A DNA stretch of 62,449 bases, filler included, from Globobulimina sp. (lineage: Eukaryota), in assembly GCA_003354225.1 (NCBI GenBank). It is 32 parts of 32 records of this genome, joined end to end, with 100 filler letters (N's around TTAATTAATTAA, not from the genome) between each part and the next. Parts side by side here need not be neighbours in the genome. Positions count along the whole stretch, not along the records: positions 52,781 to 54,634 come from PIVH01011204.1; positions 54,735 to 56,588 come from PIVH01011205.1; 30 more parts are not named here. One strand, 5' to 3'. The notes under the pieces were generated by a model. That model had not been told where the DNA came from and did no database searches. It saw nothing but the letters and a program-made list of their open reading frames with translations. A program made the translations under genes and the position numbers. Shown in pieces: positions 1,957 to 62,449 of this stretch (positions within the stretch are counted from its first letter, which is position 1; each line of letters begins with the position of its first letter).

Positions 1957-2010
1957 AATTAAATAATGAAATTAAACCAATTTCAATATTAATATTCAAT
2001 TTCATTATTT

Positions 2011-3165
2011 AATTACAATACCACCTTAATTCAGAACAGTGCTTTGCAATTTCTTGTAGATCATAATACAAATATTAATTATGATTCCTCCCCGTTTCTG
2101 TTAGTACTAAGTAGCGTAGCGGCTCATTCCCCGTTCACTGTGCAAGACAAATACTTGTCGGAGATGCAGAAAAGTCACATAGTCGCACCGAGAACACCTA
2201 ACTGGAATGCATTTGGAATGAACGATCATCACAAACTGATTAGTGCACAGTCAGCAATGTCTCAGAAACAAGTCGACGAATCTGACTACATATTTCGTCA
2301 CAGGTTATATGCCTTAAAGTCTGTGGATGATGCAATTAACGACATTTATAATTACATTGCGGATGAAATGGATGCATCCGTATTAGATAACACTTTCTTT
2401 ATTTATACCTCCGATCATGGCTTCCATTCTGGACAGTTTGCTATGCCATTTGCTAAGATGCAATTGTATGAAACAGATATAAGAATTCCATTTTTCATCT
2501 CCAACTCTGGCGACAATATCGCTAAAGGCGTCAGTGTTGATGTTATGGCCAATAATATTGACATTGCACCGACCATTCTGGACTTGGCTGGAATTGATTA
2601 TCAAACAGAAACAGCTATGGATGGAAAGTCATTGTTGCCGTTCCTCGCAGTGTCTGATGATGAGAGTGGTGATTTGGAGGACGAGGTACAAATGGTTTTG
2701 GTTGAATATAATGGTGAAGGGTTTAATCATATTGATTTTAGAATGTGTGGGACTCATATTGACGGATTTGATACCATACAATGTGATTCATGGAATAATA
2801 CATTCAGTTGTCTGCGATGGATGGATAACAGGAATGAGGATGATGCCATTTATTGTAAGTTTACATGTTATACGGAAGGCAGAGTTGAAACGGAATGTGA
2901 AGCACAATATAACGATATTGAATTGAAAGGAGAGTATTATGAATTAAGTAATGATCCGTGGCAAATGAACAATTTATGGCATAGTTTGAGCGTGGAGCGA
3001 GTCCAATATTTTGATGATAAAATATTGCAATTTCAAGCATGTTCTGGCCGTCAATGCCGAGAATTGTTTAATATGAATAGTATGGTGGTGAGTAAAAAGG
3101 AAGTCATAAAGGAAGCGAATTCATTTTATGATGTTTCGAGATTATTGGCATTTTTAGCGTATTAA
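2011..3165 (+). CDS. Sulfatase (N-acetylglucosamine-6-sulfatase-like), 5'-partial
   Basis: AHSPF, LKSVDD, NTFFIYTSDHGFHSGQF..K..LYETDIRIPF, NIDIAPTILDLAG, MDGKSLLP, EYYELSNDPWQMNNL. Confidence 0.92.
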   Translation, partial: NYNTTLIQNSALQFLVDHNTNINYDSSPFLLVLSSVAAHSPFTVQDKYLSEMQKSHIVAPRTPNWNAFGMNDHHKLISAQSAMSQKQVDESDYIFRHRLYALKSVDDAINDIYNYIADEMDASVLDNTFFIYTSDHGFHSGQFAMPFAKMQLYETDIRIPFFISNSGDNIAKGVSVDVMANNIDIAPTILDLAGIDYQTETAMDGKSLLPFLAVSDDESGDLEDEVQMVLVEYNGEGFNHIDFRMCGTHIDGFDTIQCDSWNNTFSCLRWMDNRNEDDAIYCKFTCYTEGRVETECEAQYNDIELKGEYYELSNDPWQMNNLWHSLSVERVQYFDDKILQFQACSGRQCRELFNMNSMVVSKKEVIKEANSFYDVSRLLAFLAY

Positions 3166-3912: not shown

Positions 3913-5768
3913 AAAATGGAAATGAATTACATTTATATTTATTAATACCATTTAATTTCATCCCTAATAAGTGATATTTTTTAGCTTTATAGATTTCCAT
4001 CGATAGCTCTTTACATTTCGTGCAATCCGCACCTGCAGAATCTGCATGGGATAACCATAAATATTTCAATATATCAATATCAATGCTGTTATTTGCTAAT
4101 GTTGCATATGCATATTCCATTACATTTTGCTCATTCACTGCGTCATCGTGCAATAATCCATGTGTTTCTTCCTCTTCTTTCTCCTCCGCTGGTTCATATG
4201 CTTTCGCATCACTTATTTTTGCTTTTTTGTGGGTGTTGATTTGAGGGATAACTCTCCCGCGGTCATTCATGATAATTGCGGGATATTTTATATAATTCGT
4301 ATTTATATTTTTTATGTTTGGTATCATGTCTGGTTTCCTGATACACATAAATTGCGTCTCTCCGTTTAAAGTGGCACCGCCACATTGGAAAAATATAGGT
4401 ATTTTCACATCGCATTGTTTATATTTCGATGGATGTGCAAACACAATAACATTCATATAAATACTCGCCAATTTATTCACACATTCAACATTATTCGACG
4501 ACGAGGTCTTAAACAAATCCATAATGATAACATCTGAGGGATAATAACAATGATTTTCATTGAAAATGACAACTTTTTTATAAATCGAATCATCCCAAAT
4601 CTCAAACCTATCATATTGGACATTGAAAGTTTGAATAAATACCTCATTTGCTTTCAAAATCTTCAATTCATCAAAACATCCATAGAGCAACGCGCCATGT
4701 TTATATTCCAAATATATTTTATATTCATTGCGCAAGATTTTGATTTCATTTTCAATCACAATTTGTATAAATTTGGACAGAAACACTTCCGATTCCGCCA
4801 ACAGCCCACAATTAAATGCTTTCATCCACACACTATTTTTGAATGAATATCCATTGCCTGCATTACAATTAATTGCTGGAATCGAAATATAATCCAAATT
4901 ATACAACAAATGCCGCGCCACCATATCATTGCACCGCGCATGATTTAATAACTTGATTCGTTCGCAAACCAATTTGTAAATGACTTGCGGGCAAATGCCT
5001 AATGACTGCAGTATAAAGATACTGTGTGGCGACAAATACGCTGGTTTCCAATACGAAAACTCGTAGATTTCCATATCATCGCTTTGCTGGAACCTATATT
5101 TCTTCTGCGATTTCCTGAAAATGAAGCCCTTCTCATCCATGTATGGATTCAGTGTCAAAACGCCAAAATATCCGCGATATGCAAATCTAACCAATGTGGG
5201 ACATTTATTGTTGTAATATTCATCGATATTCAATCGATACAATGACAATTTATTCACATTCTCCCCTCGCAATATATCATACAACTTACTATTGGCCCAA
5301 ATCAACGGCATCAAACCAGTGCCATCGGTGTATAATTCCCAACCGCTGCCATAAACCTCTTCTTCCTGCACAAATTTGATGTTATTCCTGGTTCCCGACA
5401 CACTGCAAATGGATGGCAAAAACCGCTGCGTGGCGTAATGGGTCAAAATGCCATTGGTAGTTAGCTGCGGCCGACATATTCTATTCAATAATTGCATGCA
5501 ACGCACGCGTTTGCCACCGACATACGACGATGGTTGGAAGAAACACAACGTCCGATGTCGAAATAGCGAGGGCGTACTGAACAAATATTGATAGGTCCGG
5601 TTATAAATTATAATGCGTCCATCATATATGCCATTCAGTATATATTTTTTTAATATAAACCCGAAATAAGAGCCATTTTGTATATTGGCACTGGGCATAG
5701 ACTCAAACTCTTCATTGACAAAGGAAATAAATAGCAAATTGTCCATGTACTTCTCATTTACAATCCAT
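3913..5768 (-). CDS. Eukaryotic RNAi-type RNA-dependent RNA polymerase homolog with degenerate active site, partial at both ends
   Basis: Ordered RdRP motifs: LFISFVNE, TDGTG, YRGYFGVL, FRKSQKKY, YLSPHSIFILQSLGI, LLYGCFDELKILKANEVFIQ, NHCYYPSDV, NVIVF, CGGATLNGE (canonical SGSDLDGD). Confidence 0.85.
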
Positions 5769-6083: not shown

Positions 6084-6272
6084 CAGTGTTTCAGTTAATT
6101 TTGCCTGTCTCCATTTCTACCACATTTCGGATATACATATCACTCAATCAGTGTTTCAGTGAATTTTGCCTGTCTCTATTTCTACCACATTACGCGGATA
6201 TACATATCACTCAATCAGTGTTTCAGTGGATTTTGCCTGTCTCTATTTCTACCACATTACGGATATACACAT
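6084..6272. repeat. Tandem repeat, ~65-67 bp x ~3
   Basis: CAGTGTTTCAGT.AATTTTGCCTGTCTC.ATTTCTACCACATT..GGATATACA repeated three times. Confidence 0.9.
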
Positions 6273-6380
6273 ATCCTAGTGACGCTACGCCTATATCCTA
6301 GTGACGTATATATATATATATATATCAATTATCAGTGATATCAGACAGGTATCATGATCTATATAGATAAGTGATCATAG

Positions 6381-6884
6381 TTTATCATTTTGATGATTCC
6401 GCAGCATCAAACTCCAATAACTCCACCAATAACAAGTTGCGTCTACAACGCACCGCCTTCGATGAAAAAATCAATAAAATATCACAAGACATGAATGCCA
6501 AACTCGACCGGCTATCCTATACTATCCTATACTATCCTATACTATCCTATACTATCCTATACTATCCTATACTAAGCCTTATCCTTCAATCCTAACGACT
6601 CGGTGTTGGATATCAATATGGAATGCAAATTAGATAAAAATTTGATAATCCCGCATGAGAATGATACAAATTTGGATTTAAGTTTAGGATTTAATATGGC
6701 GCAGAATGTGGGAGATATAACGGGCGTTTTACAAGGCAACGAAGAAGATTTAGATAGAAAGTTATTAGATTTTAAAGTGCCACAGGAATCGTTCGAGAGT
6801 CGGTGGAGAGATTGGGAGAAGACGGTATTATTCAAATTAAAACGTGGCGAAAAGTACAAACCGTTCGAATCGATGTTGGCGTAA
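6381..6884 (+). CDS. Probable 3' part of a gene of unknown function, split by the 10-bp minisatellite
   Basis: Coding-like composition on both sides; ...AKLDRLS | (AL)SFNPNDSVLDIN... continues in another frame to a stop at 6884. Confidence 0.4.
6512..6573. repeat. 10-bp minisatellite (CTATCCTATA) x ~6
   Basis: Directly visible perfect repeat. Confidence 0.95.
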
Positions 6885-31186: not shown

Positions 31187-31306
31187 NNNNNNNNNNNNNN
31201 NNNNNNNNNNNNNNNNNNNNNNNNNNNNNNTTAATTAATTAANNNNNNNNNNNNNNNNNNNNNNNNNNNNNNNNNNNNNNNNNNNNATTTATCTATGTAC
31301 AAACAG

Positions 31307-32528
31307 TGCGACTGCATTATCCACGATGTTGTTGTTGCGTGACTTGGCCAGGAAAGACAAAAAAACCGTAATCGCCTGCATCCATCAGCCATCCTCGCAA
31401 ATAATCGATGTGATTGACAGAATATTGATATTGGCCAAAGGCGAAGTAGTGTATGAAGGCAAAATGAATGATTTACACGAATATTTAAGAAAGATGGACT
31501 ATGAATGTCCACAGTATTGCAACATTGCTGATTATGTAGTTCAACAAATTGCTCTTCGACCGGATTATTTCCTACGTGAATGGGAGCGGTATTCTCTTGA
31601 TCTGATTCTCAAACCACAACGTTTTCAACATCGACAATTAAGTACAGCCTCGCAAATAATGCAAACTGTTCCTCAGCCAAAACAAATGATTTCTTTTTGG
31701 CCACAAATTCCAATTTTATTCAAAAGAGAGTTTAAAATATTTATCAGAGACAAAGCAGCCACAAATGTTAGTATTGGGAGCATGCTGTTTGTTTTTATAT
31801 TACTTGGTTTGTTATGGTGGCAGCTAACACCAGTCAACGAAATGGATTCTATCATTAATCCGACGGATGTGGCAGAAAACGTACGTAACAGAACTGGCGT
31901 ATTGTACTTAGCAATGGCGTTCTGCGGAATGGGTGCTATCTCAATGGCTGTGCAGATATTTCCTGAACAAAGTTTGATTTTTGAAAAAGAAAGAAGCAGT
32001 AATTGGTATTATTCGTCTGCATGGGTGTTGGCAAGGACTTTAATTGAAGTTCCGACGGTATTTATACTAAGTATCTTACCGGCGATAATGGTAAAATATA
32101 TGGTTGGATTACATGCGAATTTGATATATTTGTATGTTACGCTGGTTGGAATAACATTGACTTGTGACTCCATCGGTTTTTTGTTGGGCTGTTTTTCTCG
32201 AAGTCAACAAGAAGCAGCACAGTTACAACCGCTTATAGTTTTGCCATTGATGTTGTTTTCAGGTTTTTATGTTTCTGTAGATGTCATACCAGTCTTTTTA
32301 AGATGGATAAAGTGGATTGATATATTTTATTATGGATCTGAGCTGATGTTTGTTATGGAATTCTCTGGTCTCAAAGATGTAAATGGTTTGGATGTTGGAA
32401 ATGCTTTCCTACAAACAATGGATATGCATTCTTCAAATACATATCGGGATATTTATGCTTTAATCATTGCATTCTTTGTCTGTCGGGTTTTGTCAATCGC
32501 CTATTTATTCTATAAAAATGGTAAATAA
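31307..32528 (+). CDS. ABCG (white-like) half transporter, last exon
   Basis: TVIACIHQPSS, FEKERSSNWY, PLMLFSGFYV....IP.FLRWI; AG acceptor at 31305-31306. Confidence 0.93.
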
Positions 32529-52680: not shown

Positions 52681-53024
52681 NNNNNNNNNNNNNNNNNNNN
52701 NNNNNNNNNNNNNNNNNNNNNNNNTTAATTAATTAANNNNNNNNNNNNNNNNNNNNNNNNNNNNNNNNNNNNNNNNNNNNCCTGGTTGAAAATTTCTAAC
52801 CTTTCCATTCGTATTTTTTTAGAATTCCAACCGTTTTCACTCATTAGTTTTATTTTTCCATCCCAATCCACCTTATACAACTCAATGTAACATTCATGGG
52901 TATCATGTTTTCGATGTAAAAACATTTTTTGACTTAGCTTATGGTAAAACTTTGTGTTTATCACACGCTGAAATAAAAAGTACGCCAACTAGTAAACAGA
53001 CAGACTAAAGTCAGTCTATATACG

Positions 53025-53581
53025 ATGTCTTCCCCTAAAGAGGTTGTGAGGCCTCGCGTTATCTGCGAATTTTGTAATAAGAAAATTTCAAAAACAAAGT
53101 TTGTCTTTTCTTGTACCGACTGTATTTTAGTGAAAATATATATTTTAGTTTTTCAAGACACAAACGAATCGCCCACAGGGTAATGCCTTTTCCCCAGCAA
53201 GAACTTGCACCGAAACCTGAAACATCATCATATCCTGATGTTCTTGGTTATTCGTTAACACTAATTCCAGCTTTTTTACCAAATTCAACTCCTTCATTTT
53301 TGCTTCCTACACCCGTCCTTCCTCAACAAGCCACGGTCACAGCAGAGACTCGACTGATGGACTCCTTTGAAGGGGTAGTTATCGATATGGACACTTTGCA
53401 AATAGAAAATGAGATCAAAGCTATCGCCAACATAGACGATCTAAGCCAACTTTCCAAGAATGATTTTGTAGAATATTTCAAGTTGGCTTTAGTTTCTACT
53501 CAAAAAGATGCTGCTTCAGACGACAGACGTCGCGAAAAGATGCTTTATAAACTATTGAACAAATACTCAGTTTTGTTGTGA
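53025..53581 (+). CDS. C2H2 zinc-finger protein, intron 53099-53148
   Basis: Splicing gives ICEFCNKKISKTN/FSRHKRIAH. Confidence 0.75.
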
Positions 53582-53584
53582 ATA

Positions 53585-54606
53585 ATGACAAAAGAAGGCC
53601 TTTCGCGTGATATTGTCACTAAATTAGATAGTTTATTTTTGGATATTTCTAAACCTGCTGCTTTTTTGGGAAGAAATAAACTATATATTGAGTGTAAAAA
53701 GCGTGGATGGAACATAACACAGTCACAAATTTTGAAATACCTTAGATCTAAACGGGTTTATACTGTATACAAATTGAGACGTAAAAGATGGAAACGACAA
53801 CCTATAATCGTTTGGGGTTTAAGTACGTAGTATCAACTTTTTCCCACAAAAAAATCAAAAAAATGTTTTAGATTGGCTTTGGTCGGCCGATTTGGCTGAT
53901 ATGCAAGCTCTGAAAGGGGCAAACTATGGCGTGTCTTTTCTTTTGGTGTGCATTAATTGTTTTTCTTATAAACTTAGAGTGGAGCCCTTAAAGTCAAAAC
54001 ATGGGCCTGTTGTGAGGGCTGCTTTTCAAACTATTTTTAATGAAGAAACGCCACCTTCTAACATATGTACAGACTTGGGAGCTGAAGTAGGTTGTTTTTG
54101 AACTTACAAAGATATTAAAATTTTGGTTTTAGTTCTATTGTGAACCTGTTTCCAACCTATTTCAAGAACTCGACATTAATCATTACCCAAGCAGAAATAA
54201 TGTCAAAAGCATTTATGCCGAAAATGCCATAAAATTTGTGAAAACTAAAATATATCGATTTCTTGCACATTTTAATCGTAAGCGCTATATCGACATATTG
54301 AAAAAAATCGAAATCGCTTGGAATCATGACACTTCTAAAGGCCCGTTACCAAACCTCTCACCTTCAAATGTAACAATTGATCATCAGACTGGTATACCAT
54401 CCTATATCCCCTCACCCGGACTAATTTTTTATTTTTTTATAGAAATTTTTTACCATCGGTTTCCAAACATTTACGATTTGGTGGGTAGGTCAAAAAAAAT
54501 TTCATATGCTATTGATGATGTTGTCCGAATAGCATTACCTACGACATCTGCATTTCAGAAAAGTTATCGACCCCAATTTTCGGAAGAGCTATATCGTATA
54601 CATAGG
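53585..54606 (+). mobile_element. Maverick/Polinton-type retroviral-like integrase with introns (53823-53871, 54087-54132, probably 54392-54442), 3'-partial
   Basis: PAAFLGRNKLY, WSADLADM, FLLVCINCFS, PLKSK, TDLGAE/F, AENAIK..KTKIYRF, YIDIL......NH, DVVRI, FQKSYRPQFSEELY. Confidence 0.88.
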
Positions 54607-54783
54607 TAAAGATAAGAATTTCAACTATTCTAACNNNNNNNNNNNNNNNNNNNNNNNNNNNNNNNNNNNNNNNNNNNNTTAATTAATTAANNNNNNNNNN
54701 NNNNNNNNNNNNNNNNNNNNNNNNNNNNNNNNNNATTCATCAGCAAAGCACCCGAATAAATCAAATCAATTTGATTTCGCAAA

Positions 54784-55446
54784 ATGATGAAATTCAACTT
54801 ATTGCTAGCAACGTTGCAATTGTTTGGATTAATTAATGGCTCGATGGACGATTTCGATTCGCTTTGTCTGGCCGTTTATGAAGGATTAGGTTATGATAAT
54901 AGCGGGCAATGGCAATATAGCGGAGGATGCTCGCAACATTTCGATGCCGGCAGTTTTTTATATCAGGACAGCAGTGGAACTATGACATTTTCTGAATGCG
55001 CGGCTCAATGCAATTCACGAGCAGACTGTCTCTCATTTACTGTTGGAAAGAAAGGTGTAGCGCGCGAAAATTGGTGTAATTTATATAGCGTAGTGTGTAG
55101 CGCCGGTAATGTCCCTGATACCGACTGGAATACGTTTAGTCCGACACGCAACACTGGCGCTGCGCCATCAGATTACGCAGTGACATGGCAATATAATGGA
55201 GGCTGCCAAGAGCATTTTGATTCGGGCAATTTATTGGTTCAGGACAAAAGCGGAAGTATGACCTTCGGTGCTTGTTATAATTTGTGTGTGACGTTTGGTG
55301 GCCAGTCTTTTTTCTATGGCGTCAGCAGTAATTGGTGTAATGTCTATCAGGGTGTCTGTACAAATAATGATGATCTTAGCTGGAATATGTATCTCCCGCT
55401 ACTTGAAAATGCTCAATCTGTCTGTGATGAGTATACTTGCAATTAA
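54784..55446 (+). CDS. Secreted protein with two tandem PAN/apple-like Cys repeats
   Basis: Signal peptide; WQY.GGC..HFD.G..L.QD.SG.MTF..C...C...NWCN.Y..VC twice. Confidence 0.8.
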   Translation: MMKFNLLLATLQLFGLINGSMDDFDSLCLAVYEGLGYDNSGQWQYSGGCSQHFDAGSFLYQDSSGTMTFSECAAQCNSRADCLSFTVGKKGVARENWCNLYSVVCSAGNVPDTDWNTFSPTRNTGAAPSDYAVTWQYNGGCQEHFDSGNLLVQDKSGSMTFGACYNLCVTFGGQSFFYGVSSNWCNVYQGVCTNNDDLSWNMYLPLLENAQSVCDEYTCN

Positions 55447-61185: not shown

Positions 61186-62449
61186 TTATTCATATCCGGA
61201 TACTCCTCCTTTTGCAAGATATTTCACTTCAGGAGTCGGTGTAACGCTCCTGCCATTTTTTAAATATTTCGCTATACAACATAGCTTTGAAATTGGTTTC
61301 ACTCCGTTTTCAATCAATTTTCCATTATAGTCAAAAATTTCAATCGGTCTATTAAAAATTGTGTTGTGCCTGATATAAGAAGTTAAGACCTTCATGGCAT
61401 GAAGTGGACTCATGGTTGCTCCAAACTGGTTGTAACAAAAAGAAGCAAACAGTATGTCTGACATTTCGAAATCATTTCGCCGCATGTAGCGCATTCTTTC
61501 GGTCAACACTTGATAACGGAAAATGATGTCTTCCGTTTCCCTCAAATTGAGCCCCGCAATTATCGTAGCATCGCTCGTTTTGAAATAGGATCGCAACGTT
61601 TCCAAAATATCGCCCGGATCGCGAATTGAACATTTCTTAGAGCCATCCGCTTCTTTATATCCCGGGCATTCAGTACATGCCAAACAGCGATAAATGGTAA
61701 AGTTTACGATATTATGGATCCGGAAATTTACCCAGGGATGCATTTCTTTGACCTGATCGGTCACACCTTCAAGATACCGGGTAAGAAATGCATCTCTCGT
61801 ATCCATTGTGACCAATATATCGATATTAACTTTCTCCCCGTTTAGTACACCTGATTTCCCACTAGTCAGTAAGCGAGCGCTATGCGCAACTTTTTTACCC
61901 GTATCGTATGATGACTCCAAGCCCCAGGTATCCTTGAGAACTTGACCTTTATTACCTCCGATGGCGGTACCGCCATACTGGGAAGTAGGCGGGCCATTGC
62001 CGACAACGAGTGCGTTCTGGCTCAGCGCCTCCATTAATGTATAAATATTGCAAGTTTCCTGACCACCATTCCTTTTAGCTCCGACAGATGATACTCCGAC
62101 AACTTTTCCATCGAGTAACTTCTCTTTCTCGGCAAAATGCATCAGCTTATTGGCAACAGAAGAACGGTCTCCAAAATATACCGGCGAGGTTAGAATGACA
62201 CCATCGGCATCACTGATTTTATGATACAGGTTTTCGAGACGGTCTTTATTGAGCGCCAGTGAGTCAAGATGTGTTAAGCCGGTGTAGTATTGGTCAGGAT
62301 AGTGGAGATCTCTTGTTTCAACAATAGCCTTTTCCCGCACGGGAAAAATACTGCGAATGGGAAGGTAGTCTACTTGAGCACCGCAAGACTTTGCGCCTAT
62401 CAAAGAAGCAGCAGCTAAATATTCAGAGTTGCATAAAGCATCGGAGCCT
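61186..62449 (-). CDS. Bacterial flavodoxin-family / iron-sulfur flavoprotein with two flavodoxin-fold domains, 5'-partial
   Basis: NSE, ADGVILTSPVYFGDRSS, GAKRNGGQET; second domain with CLACTEC...C. No introns; higher GC. Confidence 0.88.
   Translation of the reverse strand, partial: GSDALCNSEYLAAASLIGAKSCGAQVDYLPIRSIFPVREKAIVETRDLHYPDQYYTGLTHLDSLALNKDRLENLYHKISDADGVILTSPVYFGDRSSVANKLMHFAEKEKLLDGKVVGVSSVGAKRNGGQETCNIYTLMEALSQNALVVGNGPPTSQYGGTAIGGNKGQVLKDTWGLESSYDTGKKVAHSARLLTSGKSGVLNGEKVNIDILVTMDTRDAFLTRYLEGVTDQVKEMHPWVNFRIHNIVNFTIYRCLACTECPGYKEADGSKKCSIRDPGDILETLRSYFKTSDATIIAGLNLRETEDIIFRYQVLTERMRYMRRNDFEMSDILFASFCYNQFGATMSPLHAMKVLTSYIRHNTIFNRPIEIFDYNGKLIENGVKPISKLCCIAKYLKNGRSVTPTPEVKYLAKGGVSGYE

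Follow-up and report, generated by a model that had tools for sequence, protein, structure and literature searches.

A probable Maverick/Polinton-type integrase gene with predicted spliceosomal introns, paired with a small finger gene, in the Globobulimina sp. genome assembly

Introduction

Maverick/Polinton integrases (the non-mammalian c-integrases, to which those of virophages and polinton-like viruses also belong) are standalone proteins of about 300-400 amino acids (aa) with a D,D,E catalytic core and an SH3-like region. They lack the N-terminal HHCC finger that is present in the integrases of Ginger1 and Ginger2 (PMC2836005, in part; here and below, "in part" marks a source available as a partial text). 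The core genes of characterized Mavericks have been described as free of introns in vertebrates (PMC8097293, in part) and also in nematodes, in which the region between the terminal inverted repeat (TIR) and the integrase holds cargo with introns (bioRxiv 10.1101/2022.07.12.499685, in part), and the genes of protist endogenous viruses are taken as intronless (PMC10120064, in part). Introner insertions have been reported in dinoflagellate maverick-polinton-like proviruses (PMC11957031, in part). Here we describe an integrase gene of Globobulimina sp. (NCBI GenBank assembly GCA_003354225.1), contained in a 62449-nucleotide (nt) stretch of DNA that is referred to below as the window. It shares the standalone organization, the D,D,E core, the SH3-like region and the lack of an HHCC finger with the Maverick/Polinton class, and some of its relatives carry a C-terminal chromodomain or stand beside genes for pPolB, an A32-like ATPase and a predicted double-jelly-roll capsid protein. 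Unlike the characterized core genes, it appears to contain at least four introns, and it is preceded at a distance of 3 nt by a small finger gene instead of an ATPase gene, no other genes of a Maverick being visible on the contig.

Other described systems share some of these properties. Ginger1 and Ginger2/TDD are likewise DNA elements with a retroviral-type DDE integrase, and Ginger1 transposase genes have one to four GT-AG introns, GPY/F and YPYY motifs and OTU/Ulp1 domains (PMC2836005, in part); neither the H2C2 finger of Ginger nor the GPY/F motif of Ginger1 is found in the window integrase. Domesticated integrases, namely GIN1/GIN2 from Ginger1 (PMC2836005, in part) and SCAND3/KRBA2 from Ginger2, the latter with zinc-finger-family N-terminal modules (PMC3575427), resemble the present locus as integrase-derived coding sequences with host introns. 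They are single-copy, Ginger-derived and fused to extra domains, whereas the window integrase is probably of Maverick type and its finger is encoded by a separate open reading frame (ORF). In nematode Mavericks, an intron-containing gene also lies directly upstream of the integrase, but the integrase is intronless and the cargo encodes proteases or kinases (bioRxiv 10.1101/2022.07.12.499685, in part); in the window, the integrase itself appears to be split, and its upstream gene recurs beside related integrases. Neither a Maverick/Polinton integrase with spliceosomal introns nor a finger-integrase module was found described in the literature searched, the founding papers, supplements and Repbase lying outside that search.

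Gene model and introns of the integrase

The window is composed of 32 mutually unrelated contigs of 1853-1856 nt each, which are ordered by size, joined by N44-TTAATTAATTAA-N44 spacers and range in GC content from 29% to 41%. The integrase gene and the finger gene lie wholly inside one of them (52781-54634; 1854 nt, GC 35%), and since the window consists of joined unrelated contigs, the sequence beside this contig is unrelated to the integrase locus. The stretch was found in one public sequencing run only, X1 (DNA), which is possibly the source sample. All features are listed in Table 1.

After removal of three introns of 49, 46 and 51 nt, the integrase is joined into a fragment of 292 aa, in which D86, D147 and E181 are aligned with the invariant D/D/E columns of its homologs. 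About 35 residues lie between the second D and the E in retroviral-type DDE integrases (rve superfamily), and the gap here is 33 residues. The first-pass annotation of this DNA had proposed the same triad after splicing (in the motifs WSADLAD, TDLGAEF and AENAI), together with both gene models, their introns, the 3-bp gap between the genes and a further donor at ~54607, and all of these coordinates proved correct. The contig end removes the last ~35-40 residues of the integrase, plus any chromodomain.

When three ORF pieces were compared with a profile of 30 full-length homologs, they matched it singly and in collinear order (the exon 1 piece with E 2.7e-15, the exon 2 piece with E 8.8e-23 and the ORF at 54133-54606 with E 5.6e-37), and the joined integrase matched it as one domain with 300.8 bits (E 6.8e-94, profile positions 6-286). 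Alignment with nine homologs, including seven full-length intronless ORFs of 311-377 aa, showed zero gaps at the three splice junctions. Thus, the collinear matches of the pieces, the single-domain match of the joined product and the gap-free junctions place the gene model far beyond chance.

The third intron keeps the reading frame, and its 17 codons are absent from the sister homolog (P0003), from P0004 and from the other aligned homologs. In P0001, which is 78-80% identical over its whole match and about 80% identical in the flanks of this segment, 3 of the 17 codons are identical, and in P0002 the corresponding segment ends in a stop. Among the variant sites listed for X1 (40 of 121, to which all variant-site figures below also refer), both 1-nt deletions in variant contigs, at 54406 and 54423, fall inside this intron. 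At the fourth donor, the frame of the window meets a stop immediately after 54605; P0003, P0039 and P0004 run on with a conserved I/M..PPRYG..G.WY..EL tail of ~35 residues, and P0001 departs from the other homologs exactly at the donor point. In addition, P0002 begins with 'MFQ' right before its exon-3 residues, a start that would fit an acceptor at the same place as intron 2. The proposal of the first-pass annotation that the in-frame 51-nt segment and the fourth donor mark additional introns therefore agrees with the homologs that lack the 17 codons, the stop in P0002 and the conserved tail beyond the donor.

Chance GT..AG pairs in a decayed pseudogene would fit the lack of an RNA run for this stretch among the public runs listed, and the 51-nt segment keeps an open reading frame both in the window sequence and in P0001. 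However, each of three frame breaks is mended by a GT..AG segment of 46-51 nt at a point where the homologs are continuous, the 292 codons are otherwise free of stops and frameshifts, GC content is lower in the introns (24-33%) than in the exons (36-39%), and the 1-nt indels of the variant copies lie in an intron only. We regard this explanation as barely credible. Every indirect test, including collinearity with homologs and the confinement of indels and the stop to intron positions in variant copies and relatives, supports the view that the GT..AG segments, at least four in the integrase and one in the finger gene, are predicted spliceosomal introns. The "nematode-like" character that the first-pass annotation had assigned to them was not retained: this label rests solely on intron length and the TTTTAG ending, and host-type genes in the window are unbroken over 390-618 codons. 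The source genome thus does not look uniformly intron-dense, and by comparison the integrase is unusually fragmented.

At the border of intron 3 and exon 4, a short T-rich stretch seems to be repeated elsewhere in the X1 sample: the bin at 54393-54454 has a summed contig depth of 32.6, compared with about 5-15 elsewhere, and loose ends are present at 54420 and 54452.

Class of the integrase and loci of its relatives

A phmmer search with exon 3 against 1.84 billion representative proteins produced 243 matches at E <= 1e-3. Among the best 150 of these, the median length is 318 aa and the maximum 566 aa, so none of the 150 is a Pol polyprotein. Pfam scans of ten matches listed rve in all ten (above the cut-off in six), a C-terminal Chromo domain in three and the H2C2 family in none, and scans of the single integrase exon translations gave no rve or other usable match. 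The HHCC pattern was absent from all 83 full-length homologs, no His occurs in residues 1-85 of the spliced integrase, and no GP[YF] motif was found in it (YPYY had no separate search). No match was returned for exon 2 in a PDB sequence search, and a word-based protein search with exon 3 revealed no relatives of greater length. ESM Atlas, queried with exon 3, returned unnamed eukaryotic clusters, with rve or Chromo clusters appearing only below a score of 0.9 and taken as leads only.

Degenerate-pattern scans yielded 82 loci of related integrases (two from IMG/VR and 80 metagenome contigs, mostly of 1-3 kb); when P0004 and P0011 were each used alone as the query, IMG/VR gave no relatives. By tblastn, a pPolB-like ORF was detected in 13, an ATPase-like ORF in 21 and a conserved ORF of ~440 aa in 6 of the 82 loci. 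In Pfam scans, large ORFs of L014, L027 and L074 matched DNA_pol_B_2, whereas Pox_A32 was recognized in L001 and, weakly, in L011; a C-terminal chromodomain is also present in the integrases of L007 and L011. The AlphaFold model of the ~440-aa ORF, built from a five-row alignment (mean predicted local distance difference test score (pLDDT) 60, predicted template modelling score (pTM) 0.62), was matched by Foldseek in BFVD to capsid proteins of adintovirus, virophage, adomavirus and giant viruses (nucleocytoplasmic large DNA viruses, NCLDV) with E 1e-16 to 1e-8, and on this model the ORF is predicted to encode a double-jelly-roll capsid protein. The presence of pPolB, ATPase and capsid genes suggests that these relatives are Polinton-like viruses or Mavericks. 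In L027, the order is pPolB ... finger ORF - integrase - 279-aa ORF - capsid-like ORF - ATPase-like ORF.

The spliced integrase matched the integrases of these loci by tblastn with E values of 6e-40 (L008), 4e-38 (L007), 4e-35 (L014) and 8e-29 (L027), and the matches to L007, L014 and L027 span about 250-290 residues, which is nearly the whole length. In a FastTree analysis of 143 rows, the integrase is sister to P0003 (support 99) within a 12-row set (support 96) that includes the pPolB-linked L027. The IQ-TREE analysis of 46 rows again gives P0003 as sister (99), joined by P0004, P0005 and P0016 (91) and then by L027 and L074 (88), with pPolB-linked rows on both sides of the midpoint root. 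Rows were picked by length (290-520 aa), plus P0003 and P0006, and both trees are midpoint-rooted. The joint tree with Maverick, Ginger and LTR (long terminal repeat) integrases that the first-pass annotation had in mind was thus obtained for its Maverick side, with P0003 as sister and L027 nearby; Ginger and LTR rows are absent from it, and the placement relative to those two groups rests on defining features and context instead of a rooted tree with such references.

An LTR-retrotransposon integrase forms the 3' end of a pol ORF, after reverse transcriptase (RT) and RNase H, and is intronless because it is copied through RNA. That the window integrase is of this kind, or of the Ginger kind, is very improbable. 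The rve core is indeed common to all these integrases, the trees hold no Ginger or LTR references, and the profile of the homolog family also matches the PFV, HTLV and Ty3 integrases in the PDB (E 2.7e-13 to 2.2e-9); however, the full-length matches to pPolB-linked integrases (E 1e-28 to 1e-40) are far stronger than these. The integrase has neither an HHCC finger nor a GPY/F motif, no match among the best 150 exceeds 566 aa, and the introns argue against a retrotransposed gene. Moreover, it is a standalone gene, its own ATG being aligned to Met1 of the homologs, and the ORF ending 3 nt upstream encodes neither RT nor RNase H. Based on the missing HHCC finger and the nesting among standalone integrases of pPolB/ATPase/capsid loci, we assign it with high confidence to the Maverick/Polinton class, as the first-pass annotation had proposed.

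Three loci differ in content from the others described here. In L054 and L055 (GC 20-21%), a distant integrase of the family adjoins a deoxynucleoside kinase gene (Pfam dNK, E 1e-13). Neither locus yielded a pPolB-like ORF, and a weak ATPase-like match was seen in L055 only. L028 (10.6 kb) has an intact integrase ORF and almost no other ORF of at least 150 aa, and its integrase may be embedded in eukaryotic, intron-bearing or decayed sequence.

The finger gene and its recurrence beside related integrases

The spliced product of the upstream gene has 168 aa and carries C-x2-C-x11-H-x4-H near its N-terminus, the motif being split by the intron. A canonical C2H2 finger has the form C-x2-4-C-x12-H-x3-5-H and a strand-strand-helix fold, so the Cys-His spacing of this product is one residue below the canonical one. 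Four donor/acceptor combinations were translated for the intron, two of which are in frame, and the NFSRH residues are kept only by the 50-nt one; the 59-nt alternative was rejected, as it reduces the finger to C-x2-C-x8-H. No Pfam family was found above the cut-off in the translations of this gene (best E 0.0011, below the cut-off), and ESM Atlas returned no usable match for exon 2. The C2H2 finger named in the first-pass annotation is thus retained as to the motif that removal of the 50-nt intron assembles, and is qualified by the x11 spacing and by below-cut-off Pfam scores in the homologs. One database homolog was found, P0153, which is encoded on a 764-nt contig and is 53% identical over 140 aligned residues; the homology covers the conserved C-terminal part of the product.

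The 3-nt spacer (ATA) between the two genes is spanned by a 99%-identical Logan contig of X1, in line with the virus-like gene packing described in the first-pass annotation. A fused finger-integrase protein, produced by splicing out the stop, was considered and rejected: only one GT..AG span, of ~25 nt, includes the stop, and the alignment of integrase homologs starts at the integrase's own Met1.

A tblastn search with the spliced finger protein against the 82 loci gave matches that are weak singly (E 0.07 and 0.83) and positionally meaningful. In the pPolB locus L027, a finger ORF precedes the integrase by 67 nt on the same strand; in L008 and L009 one lies just downstream of the integrase, and in L052 beside it. 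These neighbour ORFs have an N-terminal C-x2-C-x11-H-x3-5-H finger with the motif ..C-x2-C-x7-[S/T/K]N[F/L]-x-RH-x3-5-H, which was counted four times in the loci (in three independent lineages) and not once in any of 30 shuffles; a profile of the finger core found no further members over the fetched loci. Of the fetched loci, just L008, L009 and L027 fall in the nearest clade of the integrase (the 20-row FastTree set), and each of them has the finger ORF. In the AlphaFold2 model of the L027 finger ORF, strands at 22-24 and 31-33 are followed by a helix at 34-46 with a pLDDT of ~75, the model being unreliable outside the finger.

The recurrence of finger ORFs beside the nearest related integrases makes the finger-integrase pair look like an element module, and we read the finger gene as a probable accessory gene of this integrase subclade instead of a chance host neighbour. 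The N-terminal zinc domain of retroviral, LTR and Ginger integrases supplies DNA binding in cis; by analogy, the finger protein may act in trans as a DNA-binding partner of the integrase. The recurrent finger ORF is accordingly offered as a testable candidate for how an integrase with no zinc-binding N-terminal domain could find DNA ends.

As a separate observation, the L027 finger ORF (6179-6565) has a second Cys/His cluster, C-x2-C..HH.HH, directly after the first finger.

Copies, intron history and nature of the element

Seventeen Logan contigs of X1 fall on the stretch: five at >=99% identity, two at 95-99%, three at 90-95% and seven below 90%. Several variants thus have 86-95% identity, and comparison with two further runs, X2 and X3, gave nothing of use. 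For the 3' part of the integrase, variants at ~95% and ~88% identity are present in this run beside the reference sequence. The integrase-exon variants comprise five synonymous and two conservative changes, and those of the finger gene six synonymous and eight non-synonymous ones.

P0003 (49% identity) reads through junctions 2, 3 and 4 without an intron, P0039, which is 81% identical over 31 residues, does so at junction 4, and all of the more distant homologs aligned are single ORFs. P0001, P0002 and P0039 stand in the protein collections as single-exon pieces. Given that the sister and the more distant homologs are without these introns, the simplest reading is that the introns were probably gained in the lineage of this integrase, with intron 4 still variable among close copies. 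Two observations here go beyond the first-pass annotation: the finger gene recurs beside the nearest related integrases, and the sister P0003 is without introns 2-4.

We favour, at a probability of roughly 50%, the reading that the contig is a fragment of a resident endogenous element of the Maverick/Polinton lineage. Such an element would carry a two-gene module, in which a small protein with a single N-terminal finger (C2H2/BED-like) is followed by an HHCC-less DDE integrase. The module would have resided for long in the nucleus of an AT-rich eukaryote, where both genes would have acquired short GT-AG spliceosomal introns, the gain taking place in this lineage. Both genes would be transcribed and spliced by the host machinery, and the integrase, spliced and completed by its last exon, would perform DDE strand transfer of the element ends, with the finger protein supplying DNA binding in trans.

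A number of observations weigh against this reading. On the contig itself, the repeat search revealed no TIR-like pair or meaningful inverted repeat within the 1854 nt, and no pPolB, ATPase or capsid gene was found there or in the other 31 contigs of the window. No run among the public runs listed is an RNA run carrying the stretch. Close relatives are few, only P0001 and P0002 being found in 5.8 billion clusters (by a word-based search at near lengths), each with one member on one contig, and the variants in X1 could stem from related organisms, or be alleles or homeologs, instead of representing transposed copies. With respect to the finger gene, its similarity across loci is short, Pfam scores of the neighbour finger ORFs are below the cut-off (zf-C2H2 E 0.12, zf-BED E 0.0024), and an ATPase-like ORF often lies immediately 5' of the relatives' integrase in place of a finger gene. 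The class assignment carries the limit of the trees given above, the Maverick and protist virus genes cited in the Introduction are reported or taken as intronless, and one intron per ~75 codons is more in keeping with a host gene.

A host gene would be expected if the Maverick-derived integrase and its finger partner had been domesticated, that is, placed under selection, equipped with host introns and immobilized. This would accord with at least four introns in 0.9 kb of coding sequence, with the positions of introns 2-4 that appear common to P0001 and P0002 (78-84% identity) and with the intronless sister and other homologs, from which gain during genome residence would follow. It would also accord with the intact triad, the mostly synonymous variants of the integrase (5 versus 2), the very few close relatives in the databases and the lack of other Polinton genes in view. 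Precedents are GIN1/GIN2 (PMC2836005, in part) and SCAND3/KRBA2 (PMC3575427). However, the 3-nt gene spacing, together with a third gene on the opposite strand at a distance of ~100 nt, amounts to virus-like packing that is not typical of a host, and the finger-integrase adjacency is as in the pPolB-bearing L027. In addition, X1 contains three or more sequence variants of the 3' part of the integrase, and P0039, which is without intron 4, indicates that intron content differs among close copies. Domestication is therefore possible and, in our view, somewhat unlikely.

The diverged copies in X1 and the lack of a nearby pPolB, ATPase or capsid gene would also suit a minimal Maverick-derived cut-and-paste transposon, comparable to Ginger2/TDD, in which the finger protein and the integrase lie between terminal repeats of their own; transposase genes of DNA transposons commonly have introns, those of Ginger1 having one to four (PMC2836005, in part). 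This explanation is distinctly unlikely, as there is no terminal inverted repeat on the contig, the unit exceeds two genes, given the third, divergent ORF that extends beyond the 5' end of the contig, and such an architecture was not found in the literature searched. A broader proposal, which we put forward tentatively and hold to be unlikely, is that the finger protein acting in trans and the HHCC-less integrase form a conserved integration module that now stands outside a virus-like element as an intron-rich nuclear gene pair, a minimal transposon or a domesticated recombinase, and that would record recent intron gain.

Two outcomes appear most useful: the recurrent finger-integrase pairing and a warning on ORF-based surveys. 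Surveys of Mavericks/Polintons and of endogenous polinton-like viruses usually use prokaryote-style ORF finders on the premise of intronless genes (PMC10120064, in part). Where the integrase of a lineage is divided among exons of about 55-86 codons each, such surveys would overlook it or list it in pieces, and it is in pieces that the closest relatives of the present integrase appear in the protein collections. If transcripts confirm splicing, the locus would offer a dated case in which genes of viral origin gained introns, since the sister homolog is without three of the introns.

Other features of the window

Table 1. Positions of the integrase and finger genes and of other features in the window
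Feature	Position	Strand	Details
Partial ORF	52782..52925	-	48 codons from ATG 52925-52923, running off contig start
Finger gene exon 1	53025..53098	+	Met1 to first two bases of codon 25; Cys14 (53064-66), Cys17 (53073-75)
Finger gene intron	53099..53148	+	50 nt, GTTTGT..TTTTAG, GC 26%
Finger gene exon 2	53149..53581	+	His29, His34, Pro-rich low-complexity stretch, conserved C-terminal part; TGA 53579-53581
Spacer ATA	53582..53584	+	3 nt, between finger-gene stop and integrase ATG
Integrase exon 1	53585..53822	+	ATG at 53585; N-terminal region without HHCC, Met1 aligned to N-termini of homologs
Integrase intron 1	53823..53871	+	49 nt, GTACGT..GTTTTAG, GC 27%, phase 1
Integrase exon 2	53872..54086	+	Catalytic D86 (53889-91, WSADLAD), D147 (54072-74, TDLGAEF)
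Integrase intron 2	54087..54132	+	46 nt, GTAGGT..GTTTTAG, GC 24%, phase 0
Integrase exon 3	54133..54391	+	Catalytic E181 (54220-22, AENAI)
Integrase intron 3	54392..54442	+	51 nt, in frame, GTATAC..TTATAG, GC 33%
Integrase exon 4	54443..54605	+	Start of SH3-like C-terminal region, ...FQKSYRPQFSEELYRIH(R)
Integrase intron 4, start	54606..54634	+	Donor AG|GTAAAG at 54606-54607; first 29 nt, up to contig end
Cys-rich repeat ORF (next contig)	54781..55446	+	Signal-peptide-like start; two repeats WQY.GGC..HFD.G....QD.SG.MTF..C...C
Sulfatase ORF	1993..3162	+	390 codons, unbroken, host-type
Cellular RNA-dependent RNA polymerase ORF	3914..5767	-	618 codons, unbroken, fills contig; Pfam RdRP (PF05183), E 6e-35
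ABC2 transporter ORF	31287..32525	+	413 codons, unbroken, host-type
FMN_red domain protein ORF	61189..62448	-	420 codons, unbroken, host-type

Rfam and tRNA scans of the whole window gave no match. The partial ORF at the start of the integrase contig is divergent to the finger gene and lies ~100 nt from its ATG; it has no Pfam family and no match in the 82 fetched loci, and one variant contig of X1 carries a frame-keeping insertion of 9 nt in it, at 52845. Among the other contigs, several are occupied by long unbroken ORFs, and the contig that follows the integrase contig in the window has an ORF whose start resembles a signal peptide and which encodes two Cys-rich repeats (Table 1).

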